This document shows, piece after piece, positions 6,780 to 24,763 of a stretch of DNA of 64,000 bases. Origin of the DNA: Candidatus Binatia bacterium (GTDB lineage Bacteria > Desulfobacterota > Binatia > Bin18); the NCBI GenBank assembly GCA_963664395.2, contig OY761159.2:2656001-2720000 (forward strand). The letters are read 5' to 3'. Position 1 is the first letter of the stretch. Every line of letters starts with the position of its first letter. The position numbers and the translations under genes were made by a program. Below the pieces are notes generated by a model that searched no databases, had not been told where the DNA came from, and worked only from the letters and a program-made list of their open reading frames with translations.

Positions 6780-6790
6780 GACTCCTCTCC

Positions 6791-7450
6791 TTACGCTGGG
6801 TCGAGATAATCTTCCCACAGGTCGATATACAGATTGTCTGTCGTGGCCGTGTCCGGGCCCCAGAGTTCCTGGGCGCTAAAGCAGACCGAATACAGTGGCT
6901 GTGGCTGTTCACCCCGGCCGTGGGCATTGGTATCCGGGTAGACAAAGGTGCCGTGGACTTGATCGATGACCCCGTTTTTTCCGCGGACATAACGCGGCAG
7001 CCGTGTGTGCCCGGTTGGATTGAGGTTGCGCGCCTGGACTTTGTCGCCAACTGAGAAACGAGGGGTCAGGCGGCCTTCTGCCCGATTGCACGGAGCCCCT
7101 CCTTTCACAACCGCCGGGACTGCTTCGGGTGGAAGCGGACCTTCTGCCCGCTTGCTTGTTTCTGTGGCAACCCCTGTTGCCAGTTCTTCCGGGGTGAGGA
7201 CACCTTTTTCCACGGCGAGAGTTTCCAGTGCGGCCAGCCAGTGCTCATAATAGGTTGAGGAGAGATAATGGGCGGGGTCCATGCGTTCGATTGCATGTCG
7301 AAAGCCATCGAGCGTATCGAGTTGGCCCATGCCGAGCATGGTCATCGCAAACACTCGCTTTTCCCACTCGGCGTGGAAAATCGGCTCATTTTCTTCCGGC
7401 TTGACCGGACCATAACAGGTCATGCCACCCATGTCATGCACGCCATTCAT
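6791..7450 (-). CDS. nthB: Nitrile hydratase beta subunit
   Basis: [40 protein letters not shown]. Confidence 0.95.
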
Positions 7451-7484
7451 AGATCTTTCTCCTCAGGCTGAACGCTTGGCCAGA

Positions 7485-7513
7485 ACTCTAACACTCGCTC
7501 TGGCGAGGGTCAA
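7485..7513 (-). promoter_or_regulatory. Sigma70-type promoter of the nitrile hydratase operon
   Basis: Minus strand TTGACC-N17-TAGAGT with TG extension, about 35 nt upstream of nthB. Confidence 0.55.
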
Positions 7514-7535
7514 TAAATTGAGCGGCCTGAGTGCT

Positions 7536-8366
7536 CTAGGCTTTACTCCGCGACATCTGCATCCACGTTTGAGCGACTTCGAGATGGGTCGCAAACCAGA
7601 CCCCTTCGTGTTTGAGCATGTGTTGAATGAGCCGTTCCAGCATCGCCATGCGCGAGCGCCGGCCGATAATTTGCGGATGCATGACAATGCCGAGAAAGCC
7701 GCCGTCCGCATAGGCGCCGTCAAACTCAGCCTGCCAGATTTCATACACCTTATTCTGGCTCGACATGCCAGTGATGTAGGGAGAGAAAGTAAACAGAAAA
7801 TGCGGCGCATCGTCCATTTCCCAACTATAGGGAATTTCCAAGAGTCGGCGGCTCGTCTGTGGTGTCGTCAGCCAGTAGGGGTTATCGTCGCCCACGAGGC
7901 TGCTGTCATACACAAAATCATGGTCGAGTAATAAATCGAAGGTATGCGGCCCGGTATTTCCGGCTGGAGAGCGGTAGCCCCTTGGCGCTTGGCCGGTAAT
8001 CCGTTTCAGGCTCTCCGTTCCTTTCAATAACACTTCAAGCTCAACCTCACGGCCCTTGTTACCAACAAACTCATGTTCATAGCCGTGATGTCCAATTTCA
8101 TGCCCGTCAGCGCACATCTGTTCAATCAAATGCGGGTATTTGTCAGCCGACCAGCCCGGCACAAAGAAGGTCGCCCTCAGCCCATACTTTTTGAGGAGAT
8201 TGAGAATACGCGGCACCCCAGCCCGCGCGCCATACTCACCGCGCGACATCTGGCCCGGAAAGGGCTGGCGCATAGTCCGAAACCACAAGGTTTCGGCATC
8301 AAAGTCAAAACTCAGTCCAACTGCACAGCGTGTATTGTCCGGCCACATTGGATGCTCCTCTGTCAC
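7536..8366 (-). CDS. Polysaccharide deacetylase (CE4/PuuE-like) family protein
   Basis: SFDFD, ATFFVPG, HEIGHHGYEH, GYRSP, YDSS, MHPQIIG. Confidence 0.85.
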   Translation of the reverse strand: MTEEHPMWPDNTRCAVGLSFDFDAETLWFRTMRQPFPGQMSRGEYGARAGVPRILNLLKKYGLRATFFVPGWSADKYPHLIEQMCADGHEIGHHGYEHEFVGNKGREVELEVLLKGTESLKRITGQAPRGYRSPAGNTGPHTFDLLLDHDFVYDSSLVGDDNPYWLTTPQTSRRLLEIPYSWEMDDAPHFLFTFSPYITGMSSQNKVYEIWQAEFDGAYADGGFLGIVMHPQIIGRRSRMAMLERLIQHMLKHEGVWFATHLEVAQTWMQMSRSKA

Positions 8367-8498
8367 AACTCAGGTCAGTGTTTCGTCCGACTGTAAAAGA
8401 GTGGGTCGATATTCTCAACGGATACTGCACGGAATATCCGCCCGCCGTTGAAAAACAGCAGGTGACGTTCTAGGCTGAAAAAACCACGGAGAAAAAAG

Positions 8499-9116
8499 AT
8501 GTCTCAAGCAAATAAGCCAAGCTGGCCAAGCTGGGCGGAGTATTCCATACCGGTGAAAATCAATGTGCAGGCAGTCCAACTGACAGATGAACAGTTCGTG
8601 CTGCTGTGCCAAGAGAATCCAGAGCTACGGCTTGAGCTGACTGCGCAGCACGAGTTGGTGATTATGCCTCCAACAGGGTCAAAGACAGGCTGGCGGAATA
8701 GTAAACTCACACAACGTTTAGCAAACTGGGCCGAAACGGATGGGACCGGTCTGGTATTCGATTCTTCAACCGGATTCATACTGCCGAATGGAGCAAAACG
8801 TTCGCCAGATGGTTCCTGGGTGAGACGGGCACGCTGGGAGGCTTTGACCGAAGTACAGCAGAACGGCTTTGCCCCGCTGTGTCCCGATTTTGTGGTTGAG
8901 CTTCGCTCGCAACAAGACAGACTCGCCGTCCTGCAAGAGAAAATGCAGGAATACCTTGCAACTGGTGCGCAGCTCGGGTGGCTGATTGATCCGCTTGAAA
9001 AGCGTGTCCATATCTACCGCCCAAAGCAGGCGGTTGAGATTCGTGATGATCCGGCTTCACTCGCTGGTGAGTCCGTCCTGCCAGGATTCGTCTTACACGT
9101 TCAGGAGTTGTGGTAG
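8499..9116 (+). CDS. Uma2 (DUF820) family endonuclease-fold protein
   Basis: LRLELTAQHELVIMPP, FDSSTGF.LPNGA.RSPD, CPDFVVELRS, LGWLIDP. Confidence 0.9.
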   Translation: MSQANKPSWPSWAEYSIPVKINVQAVQLTDEQFVLLCQENPELRLELTAQHELVIMPPTGSKTGWRNSKLTQRLANWAETDGTGLVFDSSTGFILPNGAKRSPDGSWVRRARWEALTEVQQNGFAPLCPDFVVELRSQQDRLAVLQEKMQEYLATGAQLGWLIDPLEKRVHIYRPKQAVEIRDDPASLAGESVLPGFVLHVQELW

Positions 9117-9157
9117 GAAAAAGCCGAAGCAAGCGACAACTTATTGAGAGGACGTCA

Positions 9158-9373
9158 ATGCGGAACGAATTTACCGCGCTGATCGAGCGGGACAACGACT
9201 GGTATATTGCCTACTGTCCCGAAATTCCCGGAGCAAACGGCCAAGGCCGCACTCCAGCCGAAGCGCGCGCAAGCGTAGCCGAGGCTATTGCGTTGATTCT
9301 TGAGGATCGCCGGGAGGACGCACTCCGTGGGCTGCCAGCCGACGCCATCAGGGAAACGGTGATTGTCGAGTGA
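9158..9373 (+). CDS. hicB: HicB-family antitoxin (short form)
   Basis: WYIAYCPEIPGANGQGRT..EA..S..EAI; GAGG RBS; GTGA overlap with hicA. Confidence 0.85.
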   Translation: MRNEFTALIERDNDWYIAYCPEIPGANGQGRTPAEARASVAEAIALILEDRREDALRGLPADAIRETVIVE

Positions 9374-9558
9374 AGCGGAGTGCTCTCCTGCGGCACTTAC
9401 GTCGGTATGGCTGCTATCTCAAGCGTGAAGGACGGGGACATTCCTTATGGTGTAATCCTACGACTGGTGCTGTAGAGACAGTACCGCGCCATACTGAGAT
9501 CCCCAACGGACTGGCGCGGAAGATTTGCCGTAACCTGTCAGTTCCTGAAATCGGCTGA
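9370..9558 (+). CDS. hicA: HicA-family toxin
   Basis: MKR..LLRHL...GC...REG.GHSLW, VPRHTEI. Confidence 0.85.
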   Translation: MKRSALLRHLRRYGCYLKREGRGHSLWCNPTTGAVETVPRHTEIPNGLARKICRNLSVPEIG

Positions 9559-9744
9559 CGAAGTAGGGACTCCACAGCCTTCGCTGGAAGTGTTGACTCC
9601 CCTTGGACTCGTCGAAGCAGAAGAGCGGGAGCTACCTCGCCAGCGTAAATGTCCAGTGAGTACCTTTGATCAGCTGGATATAGAAGTATATTTGTAGTCT
9701 CGTATGTCGATGTTTTTTGTCAGCCCATTCGATGGAGGTTGTCA

Positions 9745-12672
9745 GTGAGTACGTCCTATCATGCGAAATATTTTGCTCATCAGCTAACAAGAAAGTGTTC
9801 TGCTCATGAGATCGAAAAACTGAATCAGTCGATATTCAATGCCACTGTCGATCTCAATCCGCATCAGATTGATGCCGCCCTTTTTGCCTTCCGTTCCCCA
9901 CTCTCACGTGGGGCTATCCTTGCCGACGAAGTGGGATTGGGGAAGACGATTGAGGCAGGGCTGATCCTTAGCCAACTCTGGGCTGAGCGAAAGCGGAAGG
10001 TTCTGTGCATTGTTCCGGCTGCTCTGCGGAAACAATGGAATAGAGAGCTGATCGAGAAATTTTTCATCGACTCTGTCATCTTGGAATCAAAAAGCTATAA
10101 CCACTTGGTTAAACAGGAAATATCGAATCCCTTTGAGCAGGATGACAAGGTCATTTTGTGCTCGCACCATTTCGCACGGAGTAAAGAGCACGATATCCGA
10201 CAAATACCCTGGGACCTCGTCATTATCGATGAGGCCCATCGACTCAGAAATGTTTATAAAAAGAGCAATAAGATAGCCCGTTCTATCCGGGATTCTATTG
10301 GAAGTAGGCCCAAGGTCCTTCTCACTGCCACTCCGTTCCAAAACTCGCTCATGGAGTTATACGGCCTCATGAGCTTTGTTGACGATCATTTGTTTGGGAA
10401 CGAAAGCTCTTTTCGGGAACAGTTTGCCCGAAATGCAGTCGAAATTGGAGAAGACGGGTTTAGCGACCTTCGTTCTCGGATGCGTCCAGTCTGCCAGCGG
10501 ACACTACGGCGGCAGGTATCGGAATACGTCCGCTACACAAATCGTATTTCGATTACCCAGGACTTTACACCGACTGATGACGAGGTGGATCTATACAATG
10601 GGGTCTCTGAGTATCTGCAACGTCCCGACTCATTTGCGCTTCCTTCTGGTCAACGTTCGCTAATGACTCTGATTCTCAGGAAAATACTTGCCTCTTCTTC
10701 CTTTGCAATTGCAGCTACTCTTGGATCGCTTATTGACCGCCTCGAAGGAGAGATCTCGGAAATAGATGATTCGCCCGAAGCGGAAGAGGAACTCTTTGAG
10801 TCTATCAATGCGGACGTTGAGACCGTTGCCGAAACACAGGAAGAGTGGAGCGAGAAAGGAGACGAAGAGTCAGTCAGCATAGGGGAGAGCGGAGGGTTAA
10901 GCGACGACGAAGAGAAGGTGCTCCTGCTTCAATCTATTCGCCAAGAAGTCAGCGACCTCCAAAGCTACCGCGAGTTAGCCCAATCCATCACACAAAATGC
11001 GAAAGGCCAGGCGTTGTTGGTGGCTTTAAGGACAGGCTTCCAGAAAGCTGCGGATTTAGGGGCGACTCGTAAGGCCCTCGTATTTACTGAATCACGCCGG
11101 ACCCAGCAATATCTTGTTGAGCTTTTAGAAACGAGCGGGTACCGAGATCAGATTGTCACTTTGAACGGAACAAACAATGATCCACACTCTAAAATAGTTT
11201 ACAAGGCCTGGCTCCAGCGTCACGCAGGGCAGGATGAGATAACAGGCTCCCCAACCGCTGACATGCGTTCGGCACTCGTAGAAGAGTTCCGCGAACGTGC
11301 GTCAATTATGATTGCTACGGAATCTGGAGCCGAAGGGTTAAACCTCCAATTTTGCAGTCTCATCGTAAACTATGATCTTCCCTGGAATCCTCAACGTATT
11401 GAGCAGCGGATTGGGCGCTGTCATCGGTACGGCCAACAACATGACGTGGTAGTGGTCAATTTTCTTAATCGGAGGAACGCCGCCGATCAGCGTGTCTTTG
11501 AGTTGTTGTCAGCAAAACTGCAACTATTTGATGGCGTCTTTGGGACATCGGATGAAGTGCTGGGTGTGATGGAGTCTGGGGTCGATTTTGAGAAACGAAT
11601 CAACGAGATCTATCAATCCTGCCGGTCTCCTGAAGATATTAACGAGGCGTTCGATCAGCTTCAACTTGAGCTGGATGATCAGATCCGTGCACGTATGGAG
11701 GATACTCGGACAAAGCTTCTTGAGCACTTCGATGAAGATGTTCATCAGCGGTTAAAACTTACCCACGACGATACTGAGCAGCAGATTAATCGTTTTCAAG
11801 AATGGTTATGGAATCTTACTCAGTATGAGTTAGCCGACTGCGCTCAATTCGTTCCGGACGAGTATGTATTTGAGCTAACCCGTATTCCTGAAGGTATAGA
11901 TACGGAAGAAATAGCACTTGGGCATTACCGTCTTATTACTCAGAAGAATGGGACTGCCGATCACCACTTTCGCCTTGGTCACCCCCTTGCTGCGCGTTTA
12001 CTAGCACGGGCTAAGGAACGGCCACTTCCTGCGCGTGAAGTCATCTTTGAGTACGCCCAGCATCCTAAAAGGATTAGTATTGTTGAACAGCTACAAGGGA
12101 AGTCTGGTTGGCTTCGCCTCTCCCTAGTGTCTATCGAAGCCTTAGAGCAAGAGGACCACCTCATTCTCACCGGGATTTCTGATGATGGGACTGCGCTTGA
12201 TTCCGAGATATGCGAGCGATTGTTTTCCATAACTGGCACCAGCGGGGATGAGGTAGCTCTGCCGGACGCAGTCTCTGCCCGATTAGAACAAGACTTTGAA
12301 GAGGCCAAGAATCGCACGGTGACTGAGACGACTGGGCGTAATCAGGCGTATTTTGAAGTAGAAATGGATAAGCTCGAAAAATGGGCAGATGACTTGAAGG
12401 CCAACCTCGAACAAGAACTGAAGGCTCTCGATAAGGAAATTAAATCGACCAAGAAAGAGGCGCGACAAGTCGCAGACCTTGATGCCAAAGTTGAACTGCA
12501 TAAGCAGGCGAGAACGCTGGAACGGAGACGCAGCGAAAAACGTCGAAGCCTGTTTGACGCTCAAGACGAAGTGGACAATCGCAAAGAAAGATTGATTGAA
12601 GAAATAGAATCTCGACTCAAACAGAATCTCACTCAAATAACTGTATTTACTGTTCGGTGGACGGTTATATGA
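9745..12672 (+). CDS. SNF2-family helicase/ATPase
   Basis: LADEVGLGKT, DEAH, TATP, GAEGLNLQ, YDLPWNPQRIEQRIGRCHRYGQ; C-terminal coiled coil; GGAGG precedes GTG 9745. Confidence 0.9.
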   Translation: MSTSYHAKYFAHQLTRKCSAHEIEKLNQSIFNATVDLNPHQIDAALFAFRSPLSRGAILADEVGLGKTIEAGLILSQLWAERKRKVLCIVPAALRKQWNRELIEKFFIDSVILESKSYNHLVKQEISNPFEQDDKVILCSHHFARSKEHDIRQIPWDLVIIDEAHRLRNVYKKSNKIARSIRDSIGSRPKVLLTATPFQNSLMELYGLMSFVDDHLFGNESSFREQFARNAVEIGEDGFSDLRSRMRPVCQRTLRRQVSEYVRYTNRISITQDFTPTDDEVDLYNGVSEYLQRPDSFALPSGQRSLMTLILRKILASSSFAIAATLGSLIDRLEGEISEIDDSPEAEEELFESINADVETVAETQEEWSEKGDEESVSIGESGGLSDDEEKVLLLQSIRQEVSDLQSYRELAQSITQNAKGQALLVALRTGFQKAADLGATRKALVFTESRRTQQYLVELLETSGYRDQIVTLNGTNNDPHSKIVYKAWLQRHAGQDEITGSPTADMRSALVEEFRERASIMIATESGAEGLNLQFCSLIVNYDLPWNPQRIEQRIGRCHRYGQQHDVVVVNFLNRRNAADQRVFELLSAKLQLFDGVFGTSDEVLGVMESGVDFEKRINEIYQSCRSPEDINEAFDQLQLELDDQIRARMEDTRTKLLEHFDEDVHQRLKLTHDDTEQQINRFQEWLWNLTQYELADCAQFVPDEYVFELTRIPEGIDTEEIALGHYRLITQKNGTADHHFRLGHPLAARLLARAKERPLPAREVIFEYAQHPKRISIVEQLQGKSGWLRLSLVSIEALEQEDHLILTGISDDGTALDSEICERLFSITGTSGDEVALPDAVSARLEQDFEEAKNRTVTETTGRNQAYFEVEMDKLEKWADDLKANLEQELKALDKEIKSTKKEARQVADLDAKVELHKQARTLERRRSEKRRSLFDAQDEVDNRKERLIEEIESRLKQNLTQITVFTVRWTVI

Positions 12673-12866
12673 AAATAGCTCCTGACCAGATTGTGGCAGA
12701 GAAAATAGTTGCAGAGTTGCGGCAGAAACAGCTTACCGCCCAAGAGAGCGTGAAAGAGTTAGGGGAGAAACTCTCTGCCGGTAATCTCTCTGCTGAAGAC
12801 TGGCGCTTAATTGCTGAACTCGCACTCGCGAGGGCCGGAAAGTTACAGAATGGCAAAACGGATTGA
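12669..12866 (+). CDS. Small helical hypothetical protein (65 aa) within the defence operon
   Basis: ATGA overlap with the SNF2 stop and 17-nt overlap with the next gene; amphipathic helical sequence (KLSAGNLSAEDWRL). Confidence 0.6.
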   Translation: MKIAPDQIVAEKIVAELRQKQLTAQESVKELGEKLSAGNLSAEDWRLIAELALARAGKLQNGKTD

Positions 12867-15192
12867 AAAGTTAGCTCTAGCAGGCTTTCGTGGCGCTACG
12901 TGTCCGGTCGAGATAGAGTTCGATATCAGTAAGCCTGCTGTTATGATCTTTGGAGAGAATGGAACGGGTAAATCCACCATAGTCGACGCTATAGACTTCG
13001 TTTGTAACGAAAAATATGGCTCGTTGACTGAGCGAAGTTCGACAAGACCAAAGACGCACCTCCGCGCACTTGGCTCAACTGTGGCCACGCTCGGGGTATC
13101 GCTCACCTTTGATTCTCAAACTTGGTCGGCAAGTCTGGGGAGAAATGGGCCGGTAAGCTCCGGGCCGGATGGTCGCCCCGCTGCTCGAATTCTCAGACGA
13201 AGTCAACTCCTCCAAATCGTTAATGACCAGCCGAGAGCCCGCTATGAGGCTTTACAAGATTTTATTGCAGTGCCAGGGGTCCAGAAAAGTGAGCAGAGCT
13301 TACGGGAGGCAGTTAAAGCTGTCAAAGGAGAGCTGAATGATGCGGTTGTCGCCAGGCAACAAGCCGAAGAAACCCTTGAAAAGCTGTGGAGCGTAGAAGG
13401 ACAGCTTGGCAAGGGCTATCTCGAATGGGCAAAGGAAAAAGTTCAAGCAAAACCTGTTGACCTTGAAGCTATTGTTTCCTCGGCCGATCAGATTCTATCG
13501 GCGCTGAATGATGCTACTGGTGCCCGGGATCATTTCGAGGCCGACAAAGTCAAACAATCCAATGACGAGACGGAACTACAGAAAGCGCAAAAAGCTCTGA
13601 AAGAAGCAGAGGAAGAAGCAGTAGCGCAGGACCGGACGCTGATTACTGTATTACAACATGCAAAGAATTTTCTTGGAGAACACAGCTCCACCTCCATGTG
13701 TCCAGTATGCGAGAGAGAAATAGACGCTAAGAATCTGAGGGCAAGGATTACCGACCGTTTATCAGAAATGCAGGAGATAGTCTCTCTAAAAAAGAAAGTA
13801 GACTCTGCCAAGGATAAGGCTGAAAGAGCGATTGGTAGAGTGGAGCAGACCAGCCAAAGGCTAGTAAATTCGGTCGTAAGTTTGGCACCTCTTGTTCAGA
13901 AAAACACGTTCGACGAGATTAGCTCTTTAGCGGTCAACTGGGAGCTTTATCCAAATCTGGTTGATGAGAAACCTGAGACAAAACTCTCAGCAGTAATTGA
14001 AGAGGCAAGGGCTCTCTTAGAGATCATTACGGCTTGTCGTATACCCCTAGCCTCGCGAAGGGATAACGCTCAGAAGGCTCTCAACCAACTGTCTGCGATC
14101 CAGACACACGTTGAGACTATTCAGGAAAAGACAATAGATACCGGGAGGTTAAACCAACTCTCCACGAGACTTATAGCCATCCTGGAAATTGTAGAAAGAC
14201 AGCGAAAAACCTATGTGGAAGAAGTGTTAGCCTCTATCTCTCAATCAGTTGAATATCTATATGCGCAGATTCATCCGGGTGAACCAATAGGTGGAATTCG
14301 GCTGTACCTGAAGCCTAATACTATCGGTTCCTTAGAGTTTGACAGTAGATTTGAGACAGAAACAGGAATCCCCCCTCAAGCGTATTACAGTGATTCACAT
14401 CTCGACACCCTTGGAGTATGCGTCTTCCTGGCTCTGGCAAAATACTTTAAGGATACCAATACTATTGTCGTGCTGGATGATGTCGTTACGTCCGCCGACC
14501 AAGCTCACATGGAACGATTCATTCGGGTCCTGCACGATGAAGCGAAGAGTTTCAATCAACTTGTCATTACGACACATTATCGTCCCTGGCGAGATAAGTA
14601 TCTCTTTGCTCGTGGCCCAGCCGCTAATATCCAGTTGATAGAGCTTCTCTCTTGGTCTCTTCCGAGAGGTATTCGACACAGCAAGACGAAGCTCACTGTG
14701 GAAGAACTCAATGATTACAGAAGAACCGAACCAATGGACCGCCAAATCGTGGCCTCAAAGTCGGGAATTCTTTTTGAGAGTTTGCTTGACCATATTACTC
14801 TTCTTTACCGTTGCAAACTTCCTCGACAGACAGAGCTGAATTACACACTTGGAGAACTGCTGGATAGTCTTAGTAAGAAACTCAAGGAAGCAATGAAAAT
14901 CGCACATGTTGCGGATGACGGATCGGTGAGTTCAGAACTTGCCCTGGAATCAATCCTCAATAAGCTCGCTGGAATGACATGGATACGCAATCAAGTTGGC
15001 TGCCACTGGAATGTTGCGGGAATGAGCGTGTCGGATGACAACGTAACCTTATTTGCGGATTGCATAATTGAGCTCGCCAACATCTTAGTCTGTAGCAGTT
15101 GCGGTGAGTTGCCTCGTCGGGATAGCTCTGGAATATACCGGGCGTGCCGATGTGGGGGAAAGAGGTTATACCCTCTTACCGCTCCTGCCTGA
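12850..15192 (+). CDS. Rad50/RloC-like ABC ATPase with coiled coil, zinc hook and putative C-terminal HEPN domain plus Zn ribbon
   Basis: GFRG, Walker A GENGTGKS, central CPVC between coiled coils, degenerate signature YSDSH, Walker B VVLDDV, TTH switch, RNQVGCH, CSSC...CRC. Confidence 0.75.
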   Translation: MAKRIEKLALAGFRGATCPVEIEFDISKPAVMIFGENGTGKSTIVDAIDFVCNEKYGSLTERSSTRPKTHLRALGSTVATLGVSLTFDSQTWSASLGRNGPVSSGPDGRPAARILRRSQLLQIVNDQPRARYEALQDFIAVPGVQKSEQSLREAVKAVKGELNDAVVARQQAEETLEKLWSVEGQLGKGYLEWAKEKVQAKPVDLEAIVSSADQILSALNDATGARDHFEADKVKQSNDETELQKAQKALKEAEEEAVAQDRTLITVLQHAKNFLGEHSSTSMCPVCEREIDAKNLRARITDRLSEMQEIVSLKKKVDSAKDKAERAIGRVEQTSQRLVNSVVSLAPLVQKNTFDEISSLAVNWELYPNLVDEKPETKLSAVIEEARALLEIITACRIPLASRRDNAQKALNQLSAIQTHVETIQEKTIDTGRLNQLSTRLIAILEIVERQRKTYVEEVLASISQSVEYLYAQIHPGEPIGGIRLYLKPNTIGSLEFDSRFETETGIPPQAYYSDSHLDTLGVCVFLALAKYFKDTNTIVVLDDVVTSADQAHMERFIRVLHDEAKSFNQLVITTHYRPWRDKYLFARGPAANIQLIELLSWSLPRGIRHSKTKLTVEELNDYRRTEPMDRQIVASKSGILFESLLDHITLLYRCKLPRQTELNYTLGELLDSLSKKLKEAMKIAHVADDGSVSSELALESILNKLAGMTWIRNQVGCHWNVAGMSVSDDNVTLFADCIIELANILVCSSCGELPRRDSSGIYRACRCGGKRLYPLTAPA

Positions 15193-15211
15193 ATATGAAG
15201 GACTATGAATC

Positions 15212-16921
15212 TTGGCAAAGCGGGGAAAACTTGAACTAACCTGGGTTGGAAAAGAAGACCGTCCACACCTAGAACCACGTATTCTCGTGGAAGACCCCAC
15301 AAAATCCTATGGCGACCCAGGTGCCGAAAACATGTTGATATTCGGCAACAACCTGCTTGCCCTTAAAGCCTTAGAGCGAGATTTTGCGGGCAAGATCAAG
15401 TGCATTTATATTGACCCTCCATATAACACTGGACAGGCATTTGCGAACTATGATGATGGCGTCGAGCACTCATTGTGGCTCTCCCTTATGAGAGATCGCC
15501 TGGAACTCCTGAGAAAGCTGCTGACAGATGACGGGGCTATATTTGTCCAATTGAACGACGAAGAGCAGGCATACTGCAAAGTGCTTTTGGACGAAGTGTT
15601 TGGACGGCGAAATTTTATCAACCAGATCGCTGTAAAGACAAAGAATATAGCTGGGGCAAGCGGCGGCGGTGAAGATAAGCGACTCAAGAAAAACATCGAA
15701 TTTGTCCTGGTATATGTGAAGGATAATGACTCTGATACGGGATTTCGCAAGTTTAACGAGGTTTTTGAGGAAACTAACCTTTTTGAACTTATTGAGGATA
15801 TGCGGTTGCAAGGCAAGAGTTGGAAATACACAAGTATTCTCTTGGACAAGGGACAGTTTATAGAAGAGCGTACTGTACGAGACGGTAGCGGTGATTCTAT
15901 AAGAGTGCGAAAATACAAAGGAATAAAGCGTGCCACTGTGCGCGGAATGGTACGATGTGGATTAGAAGAAGAAGCAGTTTATGTGAACCATTTTCACGCT
16001 ATCTTCTCGGACACGAATGCCCAAACAAGTATTCGTACAAGGATTATCGACGAATTCAAAACGCTGGCAGATGATGAGGTTCTGGCTGCGGAATATACCC
16101 CACGATCAGGTCGAGATAAGGGGAAAATCGTTGAGCACTTGTACATAAGTCCAACCATCCGACGGGTCATATGGTTAAAGGATACGACGCACAAAAGAGG
16201 AAGACAGCTTATCAAACTAGACAAGCTCGGGACATTTTGGTCGGGATACAACTGGAATAACGTCAGCAAGGAAGGAGATGTTATATTTCCATCTGGCAAA
16301 AAGCCCGAGGCTCTCATAAAGACAATCGTCGAGCTCAGTACCAAACCTGGCGACTGGGTCCTTGACTCTTTTGCTGGTTCGGGGACAACCGGTACAGTTG
16401 CTCACAAGATGGGCCGGCGATGGATCATGGTTGAGATGGGCGAGCACTGCCATACGCATATAGTGCCCCGTCTTCAACGAGTCATTGACGGTAAGGATCA
16501 GGGCGGTATCTCGGAAATAGCCAACTGGCAGGGAGGAGGTGGATTCAAATACTACCGACTGGCCGAGTCGCTGCTGGTACAGGACAAGGACCTTTCGACT
16601 AAAGATGCCCCTGTTTATGTCATTAACCCGCGCTATGACGAGACCATGTTGGTCCAGGCCATCTGTAAAATTGAGAACTTTAACTGTCGCAACGATGGCC
16701 GTTTGCACGGAATCAGCAGTGAGAGTCGCTTCTTGCACGTTACCACCAATTTGGTGACCCAAGCTTATATCGACTCACTCGTTGAGGATATTAGCCTCGA
16801 CCAGTCTTTACTTGTTTACTGCACTCGTCGGCGGAGGAATCTTGATCTTCCTGAGAATGTCGAGATTAAGAATATCCCTCGTGACTTGCTCAATAAGTGC
16901 GATTTTAACGAGGCGACATAG
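15212..16921 (+). CDS. mod: Type III restriction-modification methyltransferase (Mod)
   Basis: LELTWVGK N-terminus, GNNLLALKAL, IYIDPPYNTG, KKPEAL, VLDSFAGSGTT (beta-class motif order). Confidence 0.9.
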   Translation: MAKRGKLELTWVGKEDRPHLEPRILVEDPTKSYGDPGAENMLIFGNNLLALKALERDFAGKIKCIYIDPPYNTGQAFANYDDGVEHSLWLSLMRDRLELLRKLLTDDGAIFVQLNDEEQAYCKVLLDEVFGRRNFINQIAVKTKNIAGASGGGEDKRLKKNIEFVLVYVKDNDSDTGFRKFNEVFEETNLFELIEDMRLQGKSWKYTSILLDKGQFIEERTVRDGSGDSIRVRKYKGIKRATVRGMVRCGLEEEAVYVNHFHAIFSDTNAQTSIRTRIIDEFKTLADDEVLAAEYTPRSGRDKGKIVEHLYISPTIRRVIWLKDTTHKRGRQLIKLDKLGTFWSGYNWNNVSKEGDVIFPSGKKPEALIKTIVELSTKPGDWVLDSFAGSGTTGTVAHKMGRRWIMVEMGEHCHTHIVPRLQRVIDGKDQGGISEIANWQGGGGFKYYRLAESLLVQDKDLSTKDAPVYVINPRYDETMLVQAICKIENFNCRNDGRLHGISSESRFLHVTTNLVTQAYIDSLVEDISLDQSLLVYCTRRRRNLDLPENVEIKNIPRDLLNKCDFNEAT

Positions 16922-19522
16922 ATGGGCCTCCCCGAACAGATCAGCCGATACATGAGTCTGCGTGAACCGCAGCGTGCCTCAGTGGAGGTGCTCGACGAAA
17001 TTAGCACTGCCGTAGACTATCAGACTGCTTCTCTGGATTCCGTAACTACCGTTGTCAGTGAAAAAAGTCGCTCAGCCAACCCGGTCCAGTTTGATACCGA
17101 GTTCCCCTCCCTCTGCTTTGCGTTGGCTACTGGTGTCGGCAAGACGCGTCTCATGGGCGCGTGCATGTATTACTTGTGGAAACAAAAGGGATACCGGAAC
17201 TTCTTTATCCTGGCGCCAAACATCACGATTTATGACAAGCTACGGGCTGAACTGAGTCCGTCTCATCCAAAATATGTTTTCCTCGGTTTGTCTGAATTCC
17301 CTCAGCCCGAGGTGTACGATGGTGATAACTATCTGCGTTTTAACCCGCAACAAGCGGGTATATTCGACCAAGCATGTGTCTTTGTCTTTAATATTGGCAA
17401 AATCTTTGCCCGCACGGATACGGAGTTCAAATTTCATCGTTTCAACGAGATCCTAGGGAATGCTTTTTCCTCCATCTTACAAGGTATGGATGACCTCGTT
17501 GTTCTTATGGATGAGAGCCATCGCTATAGAGCCCCGAAATCTCTTGCGGCAATTAACCACCTTAAGCCGGCTCTCGGCTTGGAATTTACGGCAACGCCAA
17601 AAACGAAGAAGAACGTCATTTACTCGTTTGGGTTGGCCCAGTCCATTGGGCGTTTTGTGAAAACGCCAACCGTTGTCACGCGAACGAATCTCACTACCTC
17701 TGATGCAGAGGAAATCGAAAAACTCAAGCTGCTCGACGGAATGGCGCGCCATGAGCATAAGAAAGGACGCCTTGCGGAATATTATGAGGCCAACGGCTTG
17801 CCTGTTACCAAACCGTTTGTCTTAATCTCCACTAGAGACACGAAGCATGCGGCTGAGGTACGGAGTCTTATTGAGTCAGACGGATTTTACGACGGACACT
17901 ATAAAGGAAAGGTAATCGAAATCCACTCTGGTAAAACTGGAGCCGAGAGTGACCTGAATGTTCAACGGCTTCTGACTGTCGAGCAGCCGACCAGCACTGT
18001 AGAAATTGTTATCCACGTTAATATGCTGAAAGAGGGCTGGGATGTCAGGAATCTGTATACCATCATCCCTCTACGGGCCTCTATCAGCGAGATATTAACA
18101 GAACAAACTATTGGGCGAGGGTTGCGGCTTCCATTTGGAGAACCGACCCTCGACCCAGACTTAGACTCTCTTGAAATCATTTCCCATGATCAATATGCCC
18201 GACTCATCCAGGAAGCCAGAGATAGTTCTCTGTTCACGTTCAAAGAGATTGACGAAGCAGACCTGCGGCCTATGAAGGTTGAGCGAGTCGAACATGCATT
18301 TGTCGATCTGGACAAAGTCCTCGATCGAATTGCTGAACGTCGGGACATCCTTTTCACAGATGAACTGACTGATGAGCAACGTCTCAACGACGTTGTGAAA
18401 TCTTTAGTGGCCGAGCAAGCGGCGTTATATGAACGAAAACAGGCGCAAGCCTCCAAAGATTCTTCTGGGAAAGAGGAGACGGTTGAGACATCTGCCCAAG
18501 CGCAGAATCTGCTATTTTCCATTGATAATCAAGAAACAGAAGCAACGCCTTTCGACCCTATTGCGCTGGAGGCGAGCTGGAAAGAACGTCTGCGCCGCTT
18601 CGCCCATGCCAATATCTCCGTTCCTAAAATTGTGACGGATACTTTTTCTAATAAACAACTGGAACCATTTGAGCTCACAGTGAACTACGGTCCTTTCGAA
18701 CTGGTAGATCAGCGCGTACTCTCGCATGAGCTTGATTCTGGTCAGGAACGTATGGGTGAGCGTCTGGAAGCGCTGGAGGTTGAAAACCCTCGTGCTTTTT
18801 TGGCTGGCCGGCTGATTGATGCTATCGACGAGTTGGATGTGGCTAACGATAAAGAGACTGCTTTGAGCCTGGTGGACGCATATATAGCTCGGATCAATAA
18901 GCCGCACGAAGAGTTGAAGAAAATAGTCCACTTATACCGAGATGTCATCATCAACGACCTCAAGAATCAGATCGAGTCGCACATCCATGATAATACGACA
19001 GTCGATGTTTCTGTCCGGAGTGGTTTTGTCAAGTTTCGATCTTACTCAAAAGCAGTCCTGGCAAGAGATGGTCTTGTTCCCTACACCCAGCCGGTGCCCC
19101 GATCAGAGATCAGGCGCTATTTATTCGATGGATTCGAGAAATCTTTCTATCCCCAGGTTCCTTTCGATTCGACTCCAGAGAAAGATTTTGCCGCTATATT
19201 AGAGCGTGACTCTCTCAAATGGATTCGTCCGCCCGACGGTAATGTTCCCATTAATTATCGTGGCCGCTCTTATAATCCTGATTTTATCGCTGAAACCGAA
19301 GAAGCAAAGTATATTGTAGAGGTGAAGGCACGAAGGGAACTCGAACCTGAAATGGATCATGAAGTACGAGAGAAAGCCTTGGCTGCAATCCGTTGGTGTC
19401 AGGTAGCCTCAAATATCGCAGGATCAAAGCTCTGGGAATATAAATTGATTCCTGATGACGTTATCGAATCTACAAGGGATCTTAGGTTTGTTTTTAGCCA
19501 CGCGGTGAGTCTATCGGCATGA
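16922..19522 (+). CDS. res: Type III restriction endonuclease (Res) subunit
   Basis: LATGVGKT, MDESH, EFTATP, MLKEGWDV, EQTIGRGLR, C-terminal YNPDF..IVEVK nuclease motif; starts immediately after the mod stop. Confidence 0.9.
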   Translation: MGLPEQISRYMSLREPQRASVEVLDEISTAVDYQTASLDSVTTVVSEKSRSANPVQFDTEFPSLCFALATGVGKTRLMGACMYYLWKQKGYRNFFILAPNITIYDKLRAELSPSHPKYVFLGLSEFPQPEVYDGDNYLRFNPQQAGIFDQACVFVFNIGKIFARTDTEFKFHRFNEILGNAFSSILQGMDDLVVLMDESHRYRAPKSLAAINHLKPALGLEFTATPKTKKNVIYSFGLAQSIGRFVKTPTVVTRTNLTTSDAEEIEKLKLLDGMARHEHKKGRLAEYYEANGLPVTKPFVLISTRDTKHAAEVRSLIESDGFYDGHYKGKVIEIHSGKTGAESDLNVQRLLTVEQPTSTVEIVIHVNMLKEGWDVRNLYTIIPLRASISEILTEQTIGRGLRLPFGEPTLDPDLDSLEIISHDQYARLIQEARDSSLFTFKEIDEADLRPMKVERVEHAFVDLDKVLDRIAERRDILFTDELTDEQRLNDVVKSLVAEQAALYERKQAQASKDSSGKEETVETSAQAQNLLFSIDNQETEATPFDPIALEASWKERLRRFAHANISVPKIVTDTFSNKQLEPFELTVNYGPFELVDQRVLSHELDSGQERMGERLEALEVENPRAFLAGRLIDAIDELDVANDKETALSLVDAYIARINKPHEELKKIVHLYRDVIINDLKNQIESHIHDNTTVDVSVRSGFVKFRSYSKAVLARDGLVPYTQPVPRSEIRRYLFDGFEKSFYPQVPFDSTPEKDFAAILERDSLKWIRPPDGNVPINYRGRSYNPDFIAETEEAKYIVEVKARRELEPEMDHEVREKALAAIRWCQVASNIAGSKLWEYKLIPDDVIESTRDLRFVFSHAVSLSA

Positions 19523-19564: not shown

Positions 19565-20359
19565 ATGACAACATTTTTCACCGGACCAAAACCCAGACTC
19601 TTTGCACACCGGGGCGCCAGCGGGGAAGCGCCGGAGAATACCATGGCTGCGTTTCAGCGGGCTGTGGATTTGGGCATTGAGTATATTGAGCTGGATGTGC
19701 ATGCGTCTGAGGATGGGCAGATAATGGTCATCCATGATGCGACTATCGAGCGGACGACGAATGGACTGGGTGCGGTGAATAACTACTCCTTGGCTGCCCT
19801 GCGACAGCTCGATGCGGGCTATCGCTTTTCGCCGGATGGTGGAAAGACGTTGCCCTTTCGCGCGTCGGGTGTGGTTATTCCCTCGCTCGAAGAAGTGCTC
19901 AGCAACCTTTCGAATGTGAAGTTTACGGTTGAGATCAAACAGTCAGACCCGCCTATTGAAGAGCAGGTGATTACGCTTGTCACAGACTGCGGCAAGGCGG
20001 ATGACGTTATCATTGCGTCAGAACATGATGCAGTTCTGGCTCGTTCTCGAAAACTGGCGCCAGATATCCCGACCAATTTTGGCTATAGCGAAGTTGCTGA
20101 TTTTATTCAGCGCGTTGCAACCAATCAACTTGAAGGTTATCAGCCCCCTGGGCAGGCACTTCAAATTCCTCCCACGTATCAAGGCATCCCTCTGGTGACA
20201 GCACACACGGTTGCTGCGGCGCATCAACTCGGCTTAGAGATTCATGTGTGGACGATTACTGATCCGCACGAGATGAACAGCCTGCTTGATCTTGGGGTGG
20301 ATGGGGTGATGTCGGACTTCCCGGCGCGGTTGTTGGAAGTGGCAGGGGGGAGAGGGTAA
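19565..20359 (+). CDS. Glycerophosphodiester phosphodiesterase
   Basis: AHRGAS..APENT, ELDVH, HD, VEIK, HVWTI, GVDGVMSDFP. Confidence 0.9.
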   Translation: MTTFFTGPKPRLFAHRGASGEAPENTMAAFQRAVDLGIEYIELDVHASEDGQIMVIHDATIERTTNGLGAVNNYSLAALRQLDAGYRFSPDGGKTLPFRASGVVIPSLEEVLSNLSNVKFTVEIKQSDPPIEEQVITLVTDCGKADDVIIASEHDAVLARSRKLAPDIPTNFGYSEVADFIQRVATNQLEGYQPPGQALQIPPTYQGIPLVTAHTVAAAHQLGLEIHVWTITDPHEMNSLLDLGVDGVMSDFPARLLEVAGGRG

Positions 20360-20365
20360 AAAATT

Positions 20366-20398
20366 CACCCTCAGCCTGCCCTTCTCCCTCAAGGGAGA
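20366..20398. repeat. Degenerate intergenic palindromic repeat between convergent genes
   Basis: CACCCTCAGCCTGCCCTTCTCCCTCAAGGGAGA; resembles the reverse complement of 23807-23842. Confidence 0.35.
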
Positions 20399-20410
20399 TG
20401 CCCCTACAAG

Positions 20411-21247
20411 TCAGTTAATCTTCGGCATAACCTCGGCGGCAAAGCGCTCTATACCACTTCGGAACGTCGCTGCATCAGCGTAGCGCCCCAGCCCCAGAAC
20501 ATAATGATTTGCCCCGGCTTCTTTCATGGCCGATATGCGGTCGATCATGGGTTCGGGGCTGCCTTCGCGGATCATGCCGCCGACGATGAGGTCTGGCATG
20601 GATCGTCCGTGCTTTTCGGACTCCTCCTTTAAGTGCGCGGCAACCTGGGCTAACTCTCCGGACTGTAGCCCAATTGGATAATAGCCGTCGCCATACTTGA
20701 TGGTCCGTTCAATGGCCTTGGGACCTGCCCCTCCAACCCAGATCGGAGGGCGAGCCGGACGCGGAGCAAAGACGAATTCGGGGAATTTGATGTGCTTTCC
20801 ATCGTACGAATTTATATCGTTATCAAACAATTTATGCACAACTTCGAGGGTTTCGTTGGTAATGGCGCCGCGCTTGCGCGGGTCTACCCCCAGCGCTTCG
20901 AACTCCGGCCGCATCCAGCCTACCCCGGCGCCCAGAATAATCCGTTCATCTGAGAGTTCCTGGAGCGTGGCCACTTGTTTTGCCATGTAGACGGCAGGAC
21001 GATAAGGAAAGACCAGGACGGAAATGCCGAGCTGAATTTTCTGGGTCAGTGCCGCAAAATAGGCCAGCGTTGTCAGCGGCTCAAAATAGCGCCCGCCTGA
21101 GCCTTCGGTTTGATCCGGCGGAATCGCAAGATGATCGACCACAAACGCGGCATCAAAGCCGGCTTCTTCCACGGCCTTGGCACATGCGCCGAGTGTTTCC
21201 CGGGTTGCGGCCGGGCCCATATTACGGATAACAACACCAAATTTCAT
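20411..21247 (-). CDS. LLM-class, probably F420-dependent, oxidoreductase
   Basis: GFDAAFVVDH, EPLTTLAY.AALT, LGAGVGW..EFEALG, PPIWVGG. Confidence 0.85.
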   Translation of the reverse strand: MKFGVVIRNMGPAATRETLGACAKAVEEAGFDAAFVVDHLAIPPDQTEGSGGRYFEPLTTLAYFAALTQKIQLGISVLVFPYRPAVYMAKQVATLQELSDERIILGAGVGWMRPEFEALGVDPRKRGAITNETLEVVHKLFDNDINSYDGKHIKFPEFVFAPRPARPPIWVGGAGPKAIERTIKYGDGYYPIGLQSGELAQVAAHLKEESEKHGRSMPDLIVGGMIREGSPEPMIDRISAMKEAGANHYVLGLGRYADAATFRSGIERFAAEVMPKIN

Positions 21248-21549
21248 TTGTCTTCTCCTTCACCGTCTTGAAACAAACGTTCCGCCAACTCCTCGGCCAA
21301 AGCAGAGCGCTCGTCCTCATCTTCCCGAAGCAGGTCAAAAGATAAATTCATGAGCATCTTCCCCAGGACTTCGCGTTGGATCAAGTTGAGGCGGACAGCT
21401 TGCGGCTGCTCTTCTTCGAGTTGAGCCAGGAGCGTTTCCATAGAACGTACGCCCGTGTCATTCTCCTGCCGTGCTAATCGATCGCCAGCCATGCCGGCGG
21501 CTTGATGCAGCAAAGCCGATTCCTGGGCGGTAAGCGGATAGGAGGACAT
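21244..21549 (-). CDS. Hypothetical protein
   Basis: 101-aa ORF filling the gap after leuD; ATGA overlap with the downstream LLM gene. Confidence 0.55.
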   Translation of the reverse strand: MSSYPLTAQESALLHQAAGMAGDRLARQENDTGVRSMETLLAQLEEEQPQAVRLNLIQREVLGKMLMNLSFDLLREDEDERSALAEELAERLFQDGEGEDK

Positions 21550-21570
21550 ATGCGAGGACGGCTGATTTGA

Positions 21571-22191
21571 TTACTGCAAATCCGGAAACAGCCACGGCGC
21601 TTCGTTCTTCCGGCGCTGTTCATACGCCGTGATCTCCGCGTCGTTTTGCAAGGTGAGCTCGATTTCATCCAAGCCGTTTAACAGACAGTTTTTCCGAAAC
21701 GGATCAACATCAAAATGAAAACGTGTTCCCCCGGGTGTGGTGACCGTTTGGGCGGCGAGATCAACGCTGAGTTGATAGCCGGGCTGGGCCTCGACCTCTT
21801 TGAAGATTTGATCGACTTCGTCATTTTTCAAGACCACGGGCAGCATGCTGTTTTTGAAGCAATTATTAAAAAAGATGTCAGCATAACTGGGGGCGACAAC
21901 GCACCGAAAGCCATAGTCAAATAAGGCCCAGGGGGCATGCTCACGGGACGAACCACAACCGAAGTTGGCGCGCGCCAGGAGAATGCTCGCCCCGTCGTAA
22001 CGCGGCTGATTTAAGACAAAGCCGTCCTGGGGATTGCCATCGCTGGCATAGCGCCAGTCCGAGAACAACCCTTCCCGCAGGCCGGTACGCTTAATGGTTT
22101 TGAGATATTGCTTGGGGATAATTTGATCGGTATCAACATTCACTCGGTCGAGCGGGGCAACGATACCTGTGAGAGTCGTAAAAGCGTCCAT
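21571..22191 (-). CDS. leuD: 3-isopropylmalate dehydratase small subunit
   Basis: [38 protein letters not shown]; AGGA RBS before MDAFTT. Confidence 0.95.
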
Positions 22192-22210
22192 AGCGTGTTC
22201 CTTTCTGACC

Positions 22211-23614
22211 CTAGCTCCAGTTTCTGATATCGACGAAGCGGCCTTCGATCGCAGCAGCAGTCGCCATAGCCGGGGAAACGAGATGCGTTCGTCCACCCTT
22301 GCCCTGGCGGCCTTCAAAGTTGCGATTGCTGGTTGAAGCGCAGCGCTCGCCGGGTTGAAGCGTGTCAGCGTTCATGGCCAGACACATTGAACAGCCGGCT
22401 TCGCGCCACTCGAACCCGGCCTCCTTAAAAATGCTATCGAGCCCTTCATCCTCGGCCTGCTTTTTGATCAGGCCGGAGCCCGGAACGACCATGGCGCTGA
22501 CGGTTGAGGCGACCTTTTTGCCTTTGGCGTACCGGGCGGCAATACGCAGGTCTTCAATCCGGGAATTGGTGCAGGAGCCAATAAAGACCCGGTCTATCGG
22601 GATATCCGTAATCGGCGTTCCCGCTTTGAGGTCCATATAGGCCAGGGCTCGTTGTGTTGCTTCCTGCGTTTCCGGCGAAGGCATGTCGGCCGGGTCGGGC
22701 ACAGCCCCGGTCACATCGGTGACCATGCCAGGATTCGTGCCCCAGGTGACTTGAGGGGCAATGTCTTCCGCTTTCAGCTCTAGGGTCTTATCAAAGCTGG
22801 CATCCGGGTCTGAGGGCAGTTGCTGCCAGGCCGCCACCGCCCGCTCGAACAGCTCGTCTTTGGGCGCAAACGGCCTGCCTTTGATATAGGCAAACGTCTT
22901 GTCATCCGGGGCGACCATACCCGCCCGCGCGCCGCCTTCAATGGACATATTGCACAGCGTCATGCGGCCTTCCATTGATAATGCCCGGATGGCCGCGCCA
23001 GTGTATTCAATGACATGCCCGGTTCCGCCGGCAGTCCCGATTTTTCCAATAATGGCCAGGATAATATCCTTGGCAGAACACCGCTCGGGCAACACGCCCT
23101 CCACCCGGATCTGCATGGTCTTGGCTTTCTTTTGGAGCAGACATTGTGAGGCCAACACGTGCTCGACCTCGCTGGTGCCAATGCCAAAGGCCAGCGCGCC
23201 AAACGCCCCATGCGTGGCGGTATGGGAATCCCCACACACAATGATCATGCCCGGCAGCGTCAGTCCTTGCTCTGGTCCGATCACATGGACGATACCCTGG
23301 CGGATATCGTCTATGTCGAAAATTTGGATGCCGGTTGTCCGACAGTTCTCTTGGAGTGCCTCGATCTGCCTGGCGGCCACGGCATCTTCAATGGGTTTGT
23401 CCCGGTCTGTTGTTGGCACGTTATGGTCGGGCACGGCTATCGTCGCTGGGGTGCGGCGCACGTTCCGGCCGGCCAGTTGCAGACCCTCAAACGCTTGTGG
23501 AGAAGTCACCTCATGGGTGAGGTGGCGATCAACATATAAGAGTGTCGTGCCGTCTTCTTCGGTCCGCACGACATGCGATTCCCATATTTTTTCAAACATT
23601 GTCTTGCGCGCCAT
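22211..23614 (-). CDS. leuC: 3-isopropylmalate dehydratase large subunit
   Basis: [44 protein letters not shown]. Confidence 0.97.
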
Positions 23615-23806
23615 TATTTACCCCTTTATGCTCCGTCTCGCTTTCTTTTGGGCCGTGGCTCCTGAAAGAGCTATACCTTTCTCAGATTTGGTAGGGGCTG
23701 GCAAGATGGAAGGAGCGGAGACGGTATGGTAGGATGACCCTCCTGACTCCGAAGAGTCGAAATCCAGAAAAAGGTTGGAAAGTTAGGGAGAGGGAGAAAC
23801 TCGGTT

Positions 23807-23842
23807 CCCTCGCCCCTTGGGGGAGAGGGCTAGGGTGAGGGG
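23807..23842. repeat. Intergenic palindromic repeat (CCCTCACCC..CCCTCTCCC type)
   Basis: CCCTCGCCCC-TTG-GGGGAGAGGG hairpin followed by CTAGGGTGAGGGG. Confidence 0.5.
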
Positions 23843-23866
23843 TATTCAACTTTTAGGGAGAATTTC

Positions 23867-24727: not shown

Positions 24728-24763
24728 GCCGGACTGCCGCAACCATCCGCGACATTTCAGCCC

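Follow-up and report, generated by a model that had tools for sequence, protein, structure and literature searches.

An SNF2-partnered Type III restriction–modification operon of a Candidatus Binatia bacterium carrying an optional small protein–ATPase module with a predicted HEPN domain

The locus described here lies in a stretch of 64,000 nucleotides (nt) of the genome of a Candidatus Binatia bacterium (assembly GCA_963664395.2, contig OY761159.2, positions 2,656,001 to 2,720,000 of the forward strand), hereafter the window, whose positions are counted from its first letter. Five co-oriented and closely spaced open reading frames (ORFs), located at 9745-19522 on the + strand, encode in this order a helicase of the SNF2 family, a protein of 65 amino acids (aa), an SMC/Rad50-like ATPase, and the Mod and Res proteins of a Type III restriction–modification (R-M) system. 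The locus is probably a horizontally acquired, SNF2-partnered Type III R-M operon together with an optional module, formed by the small protein and an ATPase with a predicted HEPN domain, that would serve as an abortive back-up in the style of RloC and PrrC. The undescribed parts are the predicted HEPN domain family and the small partner protein; the rest is of known kinds.

Gene content and organization

The features of the operon are the following:

9745-12672, + strand: DrmD-like helicase of the SNF2 family, 975 aa from GTG 9745, in an ORF open from TTG 9739
12669-12866, + strand: conserved protein of 65 aa, partner of the ATPase
12850-15192, + strand: SMC/Rad50-like ABC ATPase of 780 aa, with coiled-coil insert, C-terminal domain and zinc ribbon
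13699-13710, + strand: zinc-hook motif CPVC of the ATPase (residues 284-287), with C284, P285 and C287 invariant in 20 and in 31 sequences
14692-15084, + strand: predicted HEPN-fold domain of the ATPase (about residues 615-745)
15091-15153, + strand: C-terminal zinc ribbon of the ATPase, C748-x2-C751 ... C766-x-C768, with the four cysteines invariant or at least 90% conserved
15212-16921, + strand: Type III Mod, beta-class amino-methyltransferase (Pfam N6_N4_Mtase, E 3.5e-42)
16922-19522, + strand: Type III Res, superfamily 2 (SF2) helicase with a C-terminal nuclease motif (Pfam ResIII, E 1.9e-20; weak RE_endonuc match, 0.0035)

Consecutive genes are joined by an ATGA overlap (12669-12672), in which the TGA of the SNF2 gene shares bases with the ATG of the small ORF, by a 17-nt overlap between the small ORF and the ATPase gene (12850-12866), by a spacing of 19 nt (15193-15211) up to the TTG start of mod at 15212, and by direct joining of the TAG of mod (16919-16921) to the ATG of res at 16922, with 0 nt between them. 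For the SNF2 gene, GTG 9745 appears a more plausible start than TTG 9739, since a GGAGG at 9734-9738 is located 6 nt ahead of it.

A preliminary description, made from the sequence of the window, had reported these five genes and their four junctions in a block richer in AT than its flanks and lacking integrase and transposase genes, and all of it was confirmed. The guanine plus cytosine (GC) fraction of the five genes was 0.47-0.495, against 0.575 in positions 1-8400 and 0.562 in 19565-30000, and neither integrase nor transposase was found among the neighbouring genes scanned (5.7-24.7 kb). Its domain calls were also recovered, with Pfam SNF2-rel_dom (2.7e-35) and Helicase_C (2.6e-17) for the SNF2 protein, no family for the 65-aa ORF, AAA_23 (7.4e-16) and an SMC_N match split across residues 5-577 for the ATPase, N6_N4_Mtase for Mod and ResIII for Res. 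Catalytic motifs are intact in all four enzymes (SNF2, ATPase, Mod and Res).

The SNF2 protein contains the motifs DEVGLGKT and DEAH; its best family is DrmD of DISARM (PADLOC DrmD, 1e-208, core only) and its closest solved structure is that of RapA (7e-37). In the translation of mod, DPPY (residues 68-71) is followed by DSFAGSGTTG (the FxGxG motif), with the target-recognition region between the two, in the central part of the gene (about 15480-16344); DPPY is found in enzymes of both kinds, so that it cannot separate N6-methyladenine (m6A) from N4-methylcytosine (m4C) for this Mod. Full-length similarity was obtained with PADLOC MTase_III (8.5e-142, residues 1-567), and also a match with Mod of EcoP15I (4zcf_A, 4.2e-20). 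Res shows in its translation GVGKT, DESH and a C-terminal PD...EVK (PD-ExK) and matches PADLOC REase_III (1e-107); its score against the NCBIfam type III endonuclease was 48.6 bits, under the cut-off of 564, and no solved-structure sequence match was obtained at E 1e-3. By these motifs Mod and Res appear to be a Type III pair, with a beta-class Mod and a Res that combines an SF2 helicase with a PD-(D/E)xK nuclease.

The ATPase and its C-terminal domain

A total of 192 full-length homologues of the ATPase, of about 780 aa and 40-50% identity, were found in many phyla, and no relative in the phage collection searched. Besides the Pfam matches given above, a weak match to Rad50_zn_hook (residues 279-307, E 3.6e-4) and a partial one to PADLOC LmuB (1.5e-26) were obtained; the coiled coil and the hook are assigned from such Pfam and PADLOC matches and from motifs. 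Conservation was read from two alignments, of 20 and 31 sequences, in which the Walker A motif G35-E-N-G-x-G-K41, the ATPase signature (S514/H517/L518/D519), Walker B (D543/D544), the H-loop (H576) and the D-loop are invariant. Within the C-terminal 200 residues the invariant positions are E643, R713, N714, G717 and H719; the last four form an Rx5H motif (R713-N714-x2-G717-x-H719), encoded at 14986-15006, and R713 and H719 are unchanged in all full-length members aligned. Rx4-6H is the signature of catalytic HEPN domains.

The C-terminal domain is predicted to adopt a HEPN fold and to be a putative ribonuclease (RNase) from three lines of evidence: the fold ranking, the invariance of Rx5H, and the precedent of PrrC and RloC, in which an ABC ATPase is joined to a HEPN domain. 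The sequence methods used (Pfam, PADLOC, PDB profile and hhalign) did not tie the domain to a HEPN family: Pfam on 40 C-terminal domains gave a best E of 0.015, PADLOC no match at E up to 10, the profile search of PDB chance matches to superoxide dismutase only, and hhalign against single HepT-like or AbiV-like neighbours a probability of <1%. Foldseek against PDB returned nothing at E 1e-3 or better. The Rad50/RloC-like ATPase of the preliminary description can thus be described as an ABC ATPase with a zinc hook and a predicted C-terminal HEPN fold bearing an invariant Rx5H.

A profile of the domain, searched against 1.84 billion representatives (clusters at 50% identity), gave 1022 matches at E 1e-3 and 297 at 1e-30. 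Among the best 150 profile matches the domain is nearly always C-terminal in proteins of about 740-820 aa, and the shorter ones look like fragments; as far as can be judged from these matches, ATPase and C-terminal domain are one fixed architecture.

The small protein

The family of the 65-aa protein shows the motif PD..hA..I...L....LL......L...L..G....EDW.L..E. and, in an alignment of 39 sequences (A3), D44/W45 are nearly invariant. No family match was found in Pfam, NCBIfam or PADLOC, the PADLOC models including LmuC. All of the 44 protein clusters found for it are annotated as 'hypothetical', and the protein Atlas returned only 'hypothetical protein' clusters with a score < 0.9.

Genomic context and distribution

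In a genome scan, 139 relatives of the ATPase were found, and the best 80 of these 139 matches gave 59 loci, examined by gene calling and BLAST, whose context frequencies are biased by having been seeded on the ATPase. Their arrangements were:

36/59 loci: SNF2, ATPase, Mod and Res in this order and co-oriented, in many phyla
9/59 loci: in agreement with the order SNF2, ATPase, Mod and Res, but with a contig end intervening; L014, among them, has the ATPase before SNF2
2/59 loci (L007 and L059): SNF2 and ATPase, with no Mod or Res within 10 kb
11/59 loci: small protein and ATPase pair without SNF2, Mod and Res
1/59 loci (L050): degraded

The complete SNF2-ATPase-Mod-Res backbone, or a match to it until the contig end, is therefore present in 45/59 loci. 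Since the same order is found in 36/59 loci from many phyla, its recurrence is far above chance, and the first three genes do co-occur with mod and res. Carriers of the operon include a cultured bacterium, Treponema sp. TIM-1 (L012). None of the 59 loci places the pair within a Type I R-M operon, nor within a Type III one that lacks SNF2. In L014 (9-5692) a permuted order was observed, with the ATPase followed by SNF2 and then Mod.

A family-like small ORF stands immediately 5' of the ATPase gene in 43/59 of these loci, and in 23 of those 43 it starts between -80 and +60 nt from the SNF2 stop. Because this accompaniment includes the stand-alone loci, the small gene and the ATPase gene are one module. 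The stand-alone pairs are surrounded by housekeeping genes. The full-length pair was also found on 5 plasmids of Hymenobacter and Fibrella; in the two that were inspected (H1 and H4) it lies beside integrase/recombinase genes, with no SNF2, Mod or Res within 9 kb. On one plasmid of Hymenobacter (L156) and one of Fibrella (L157) the pair is near defence-like genes, namely those for WYL proteins, an MPN-domain protein, and patatin and ThiF.

With the SNF2 alignment, 79 loci of 44-65% identity were kept from a metagenome scan. Full-length SNF2 was present in 64 of them, with the ATPase in 6, without it in 47 and unscorable in 11, that is, 6/53 versus 47/53 scorable loci; SNF2 and mod are directly adjacent, with nothing between, in 22/53 loci where Mod comes after SNF2. 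The module is thus optional in SNF2-Mod-Res operons, as it is carried by 6/53 scorable SNF2-seeded loci and the SNF2 tree (see below) calls for no fewer than 15 gains or losses. In both locus sets the positions between SNF2 and Mod and between Mod and Res are occupied by many different defence genes: AbiEi/AbiEii, DUF2130, Schlafen-AlbA_2 proteins, GmrSD, AIPR, OLD nucleases, SIR2 with HerA, AAA+ with S8 protease, Fic, RhuM, AAA_21 with DUF4276 or HNH, and DUF3800. These operons can be regarded as platforms with interchangeable defence genes at fixed positions.

Two further observations concern these operons. A YhcG/DUF1016 PD-(D/E)xK nuclease gene recurs between mod and res (L008, L016, L019, L023, L034, L037, L052 and L108), and a gene of the same type is located between SNF2 and mod in L082. 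Another operon type, found in 14 loci (L102, L128, L110, L124, L129, L123, L138, L104, L130, L132, L127, L094, L065 and L080), encodes SNF2, then a Mod-like protein (about 890-1180 aa) and, in most of the loci, a further protein of about 1050-1130 aa not matching Res; most of its SNF2 proteins are in a separate clade without ATPase.

The five genes had been proposed as one undescribed defence system. The novelty stands for the middle pair, for which no name was found, but not for SNF2, Mod and Res, which are already described, and the unity of the five was not supported in view of the 47/53 SNF2 operons without ATPase, the stand-alone pairs and the unrelated defence genes in the slots. PADLOC 2.0 called MTase_III, REase_III and a DrmD-like helicase and gave nothing for the small ORF, and the full set is unnamed in the libraries scanned. 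With present automated annotation the locus would be divided, or two of its genes would go without assignment.

Co-divergence of the components

On a FastTree phylogeny of 103 SNF2 proteins (in which one row, L014, was mis-scored as ATPase-negative), the presence of the ATPase requires 17 changes, of which well-supported branches force 15; with shuffled labels the mean was 30.9 changes, and 0/500 shuffles were as low as 17. The stand-alone ATPases are dispersed over the ATPase tree (6 changes). Mantel correlations were calculated for 30 of the 36 complete loci, L010, L022, L023, L025, L040 and L052 being dropped on account of split genes; the r values ignore host phylogeny, and the p-distances of the ATPase are near saturation (mean 0.67):

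Mod-Res: 0.89
SNF2-ATPase: 0.66
SNF2-Res: 0.41
SNF2-Mod: 0.32
ATPase-Mod: 0.27
ATPase-Res: 0.27

Two linkage blocks are delimited by this pattern, one of SNF2, small protein and ATPase and the other of Mod and Res. Taken together, the changes on the tree, the co-divergence and the scattered stand-alone ATPases fit better with a pair that is an old accessory of the SNF2 lineage, often lost and occasionally swapped, than with a freely hopping cassette. The co-divergence of SNF2 and ATPase is one new hint on the role of SNF2.

Acquisition and variation within the genus

The syntenic site was compared in 8 genomes of the same genus. The five genes, together with hicA, are present in 2 of them and absent in 6; at the 6 empty sites the Uma2 gene (with hicB kept in 3) runs straight to the GDPD gene. 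By tblastn, hicA was detected in 2/2 occupied and in 0/6 empty sites. Since hicA is missing at all 6 empty sites and hicB survives at 3, the boundary of the indel seems to be inside the hicBA pair, and hicA is probably its left end. The low GC content and the 6/8 empty syntenic sites indicate that the block is horizontally acquired.

Between the window and the closest carrier genome, L001, nucleotide identity is 92% in the block and 84-88% in the flanks. The SNF2 and Res proteins are 97% and 95% identical in aa sequence to those of L001, and the flanking housekeeping genes 83-95%. As the block (9131-15480) is more alike than its flanks, these identities hint that the island was recently exchanged among members of the genus. 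The region 15480-16344, inside mod, has no nucleotide match in L001, the adjoining sides having 88-92%, and Mod is 57% identical to that of L001 and 95% to that of the other carrier; from this it looks as if the target-recognition region, and hence probably the specificity, had been replaced.

The genes found among the neighbours (5.7-24.7 kb) are those of nitrile hydratase, deacetylase, Uma2, HicBA, GDPD, luciferase-like protein and aconitase. Those next to the operon are:

8499-9116, upstream of the operon: Uma2-family endonuclease gene
9110-9373: HicB-like ORF (weak match, E 0.0048)
9370-9558, + strand: HicA toxin gene (Pfam HicA_toxin, 1.2e-8)

No tRNA was found in the scan of the whole window and no flanking repeats bounding the block in the repeat scan, so that these two scans yielded no island boundaries. 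In the promoter and terminator scans the number of sites was not above that of shuffled sequence. A sequence of about 35 nt (20364-20398), lying between the GDPD gene and the luciferase-like gene, has copies 89-94% identical elsewhere in the genome and in relatives, and overlaps a 16-nt repeat shared with 7720-7735; it probably represents a short repeat element of intergenic regions.

Proposed function and alternative explanations

The layered scheme of the preliminary description, with R-M acting first and an abortive ATPase second, was kept as the best reading on the present analysis, the second layer being here the ATPase-HEPN protein. Mod would mark the host DNA, and DNA that enters without the modification would be cut by Mod and Res in a first line of defence. 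A second line, of the RloC/PrrC kind, would be provided by the ATPase-HEPN protein: a dimeric ATPase with zinc-hook arms may respond to DNA ends, to damaged DNA or to a restriction complex that is blocked, and an ATP-driven rearrangement would then free the HEPN RNase to cut tRNA or other RNA, by which translation would stop and the infection would be aborted. For the 65-aa helical protein the most likely role is that of a bound regulator or inhibitor by which the RNase is kept silent, or else of an adaptor to the ATPase heads, and SNF2 would be a DNA translocase tied to the module by co-inheritance.

Several observations weigh against an accessory, RloC-like back-up. The context frequencies, as stated, come from loci seeded on the ATPase and are biased. 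Six stand-alone loci (L027, L030, L032, L036, L038 and L045), mostly from metagenome-assembled genomes of Chloroflexota, consist of the small ORF and an ATPase that lacks the HEPN/zinc-ribbon end and has about 610-637 aa; they represent either decay or a function without RNase, and by these forms the work of the pair may not need to involve an RNase. The catalytic triad of RloC, R-x3-E-x36-52-H (Davidov and Kaufmann 2008, PMC2610378), is not present in the ATPase family of the window, which conserves R631, E643, R713 and H719, has no conserved R-x3-E and places E643 and H719 76 residues apart. Pfam AAA_13 (PF13166) reached 19 bits versus a cut-off of 36 (E 6.3e-4), over residues 526-576 only. 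In addition, the SNF2 of the window is in a well-supported clade with 15/15 rows ATPase-positive, a figure biased by rows that are mostly ATPase-seeded, and SNF2 co-diverges more with the ATPase than with Res; the clade and the SNF2-ATPase correlation are more readily explained by a long-standing, integral partnership than by an add-on that moves freely.

It is possible, although doubtful, that the SNF2 helicase, the 65-aa protein and the ATPase-HEPN protein are one co-inherited sensor-effector unit guarding Type III restriction, in which SNF2 would detect stalled or inhibited Mod/Res, or unprotected DNA, and signal the ATPase to release the HEPN RNase. If true, this would explain the SNF2 partner of hundreds of Type III systems, and the 297 clusters at 50% identity reaching E 1e-30 would be an unnamed family of abortive infection.

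A single obligate machine of the five proteins, a new multi-subunit R-M-like system with SNF2, small protein and ATPase needed for modification or restriction, is unlikely. It would agree with the identical order in many phyla, the translational coupling of the genes, the 15/15 ATPase-positive rows of the SNF2 clade, the SNF2-ATPase correlation and the precedent of ATPase-dependent methylation in MANTIS, as far as the available part of the source on that system goes. Against it, 47/53 scorable SNF2-Mod-Res loci have no ATPase and 22/53 have SNF2 and mod adjacent, and the pair occurs alone in 11/59 loci and on 5 plasmids. Mod and Res diverge together (r 0.89), yet either shows r 0.27 with the ATPase. 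According to the accessible parts of the reports cited in the next section, Mod of Eco86II methylates alone and the active fractions are without helicase, and mod and res of EcoR22I restrict alone.

Nor is it likely that the pair is a DNA-directed, SMC-like defence of the Lamassu or Wadjet kind, which would sense or clamp foreign DNA ends, with a regulatory or nucleic-acid-binding C-terminal domain and with Res or another nuclease as effector. R713 and H719 are invariant, as is characteristic of catalytic HEPN domains, an LmuA-like effector gene was not found with the pair, and plasmids H1 and H4 share no conserved adjacent nuclease partner. Finally, adjacency without function, the pair being an independent selfish or toxin-antitoxin-like cassette in a permissive slot with no cross-talk with R-M or SNF2, is very unlikely: the many unrelated cassettes in the same slots, the stand-alone copies and the several gains and losses required would suit it, but the ATPase family is found mainly in one backbone (45/59 loci complete or consistent up to a contig end), no locus links the pair to a Type I operon or to an SNF2-free Type III operon, and the module co-diverges with SNF2.

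Comparison with known systems

Eco86II and BspHIV are Type III systems with a helicase-like ATPase 5' of mod, reported from >500 genomes (Murray et al. 2021, PMC8259958); in the available part of that report, methylation by Eco86II is carried out by Mod alone and helicase peptides are absent from the cleavage-active fractions. EcoR22I is a Type III system linked to a drmD-like SNF2, whose mod and res suffice for phage restriction, the cell being killed when Ocr is present, according to the accessible sections of the source (Silas et al., bioRxiv 10.1101/2023.04.06.535777). Like these systems, the operon of the window has a DrmD-like SNF2/SF2 helicase without nuclease motif, 5' of a co-oriented beta-class Mod and a helicase-nuclease Res; unlike them, it has two extra genes between helicase and mod, a pair not mentioned for those systems in the same parts of the sources. 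On that footing, SNF2, Mod and Res are an already described Type III subclass. These SNF2-partnered systems are common, as the genome count in the available part of the first report indicates, and the present locus pairs the helicase with a module diverging in step with it, which gives a handle on the role of the helicase.

The statement of the preliminary description that the gene set is not BREX, DISARM or Wadjet was borne out. For class 1 DISARM, the SNF2 protein scored 699.6 bits against NF038318 (DISARM_DrmD_b; cut-off 950) and 279 against NF038317 (cut-off 610), neither DrmB nor DrmC was among the listed PADLOC matches of the five proteins, and no DrmA, DrmB or DrmC gene was found in the neighbourhood; DrmA came up solely with the SNF2 core, at a lower rank (E 2.4e-37). 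MANTIS (Gao_RL), as presented in the part of its source that was available, comprises the AAA+ ATPase MtsA, the co-regulator MtsB, the BREX-related methyltransferase MtsC and the helicase-nuclease MtsD, and its methylation depends on two ATPases; it was rejected, the ATPase of the window being of ABC/SMC type and the methyltransferase a Type III Mod. The Hma/DUF499 systems, related to BREX, have a DUF499 STAND/ORC-type AAA+ ATPase, an N6-methyltransferase and an SNF2 helicase-nuclease, according to the accessible part of PMC12839542; HmaA matched SNF2 at 7e-57, DrmD being far better, and HmaC did not appear in the 25 listed of the 52 ATPase matches (E<=0.01), so that these systems, as far as that part describes them, were also rejected. 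With Lamassu the locus shares an SMC-like coiled-coil ATPase, similar to LmuB, and a small accessory gene, but Lamassu as such was rejected, as no LmuA-like gene is present in the window or in related loci and the predicted effector is fused to the ATPase. No name for the pair was found in the main texts of the literature searched, and an ABC-ATPase classification may cover the clade.

The nearest designs are those of RloC and PrrC. RloC proteins have 658-897 aa and an occasional link to Type I or III R-M, with 8/72 genes at R-M loci (PMC2610378). The ATPase of the window resembles them in its similar size, in ABC motifs interrupted by an inserted coiled coil that carries a CxxC zinc hook, and in a C-terminal domain of nuclease class, here predicted. 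It differs in its C-terminal zinc ribbon and 65-aa partner gene, and in that its family is mostly found inside SNF2-Type III operons. The AAA_13 score below threshold, the lack of the triad, and the added zinc ribbon and partner gene would place the ATPase outside the RloC family, RloC-like as it appears in design. PrrC, encoded with EcoprrI of Type Ic, is an ABC ATPase-HEPN nuclease of an R-M operon that is presumed to be activated by a block of restriction, and its physical silencing by the R-M enzyme has been demonstrated. The window likewise encodes an ABC ATPase with a HEPN domain, here predicted, inside an R-M operon; PrrC, unlike it, is without coiled coil or zinc hook, has half the size and belongs to Type I loci. 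Should the module prove to be an RloC-like back-up, restriction guarded by a suicide RNase, the principle of PrrC and RloC, would be extended to systems of Type III and to many environmental phyla, and the defence catalogue would gain an unannotated HEPN family with its small partner protein.

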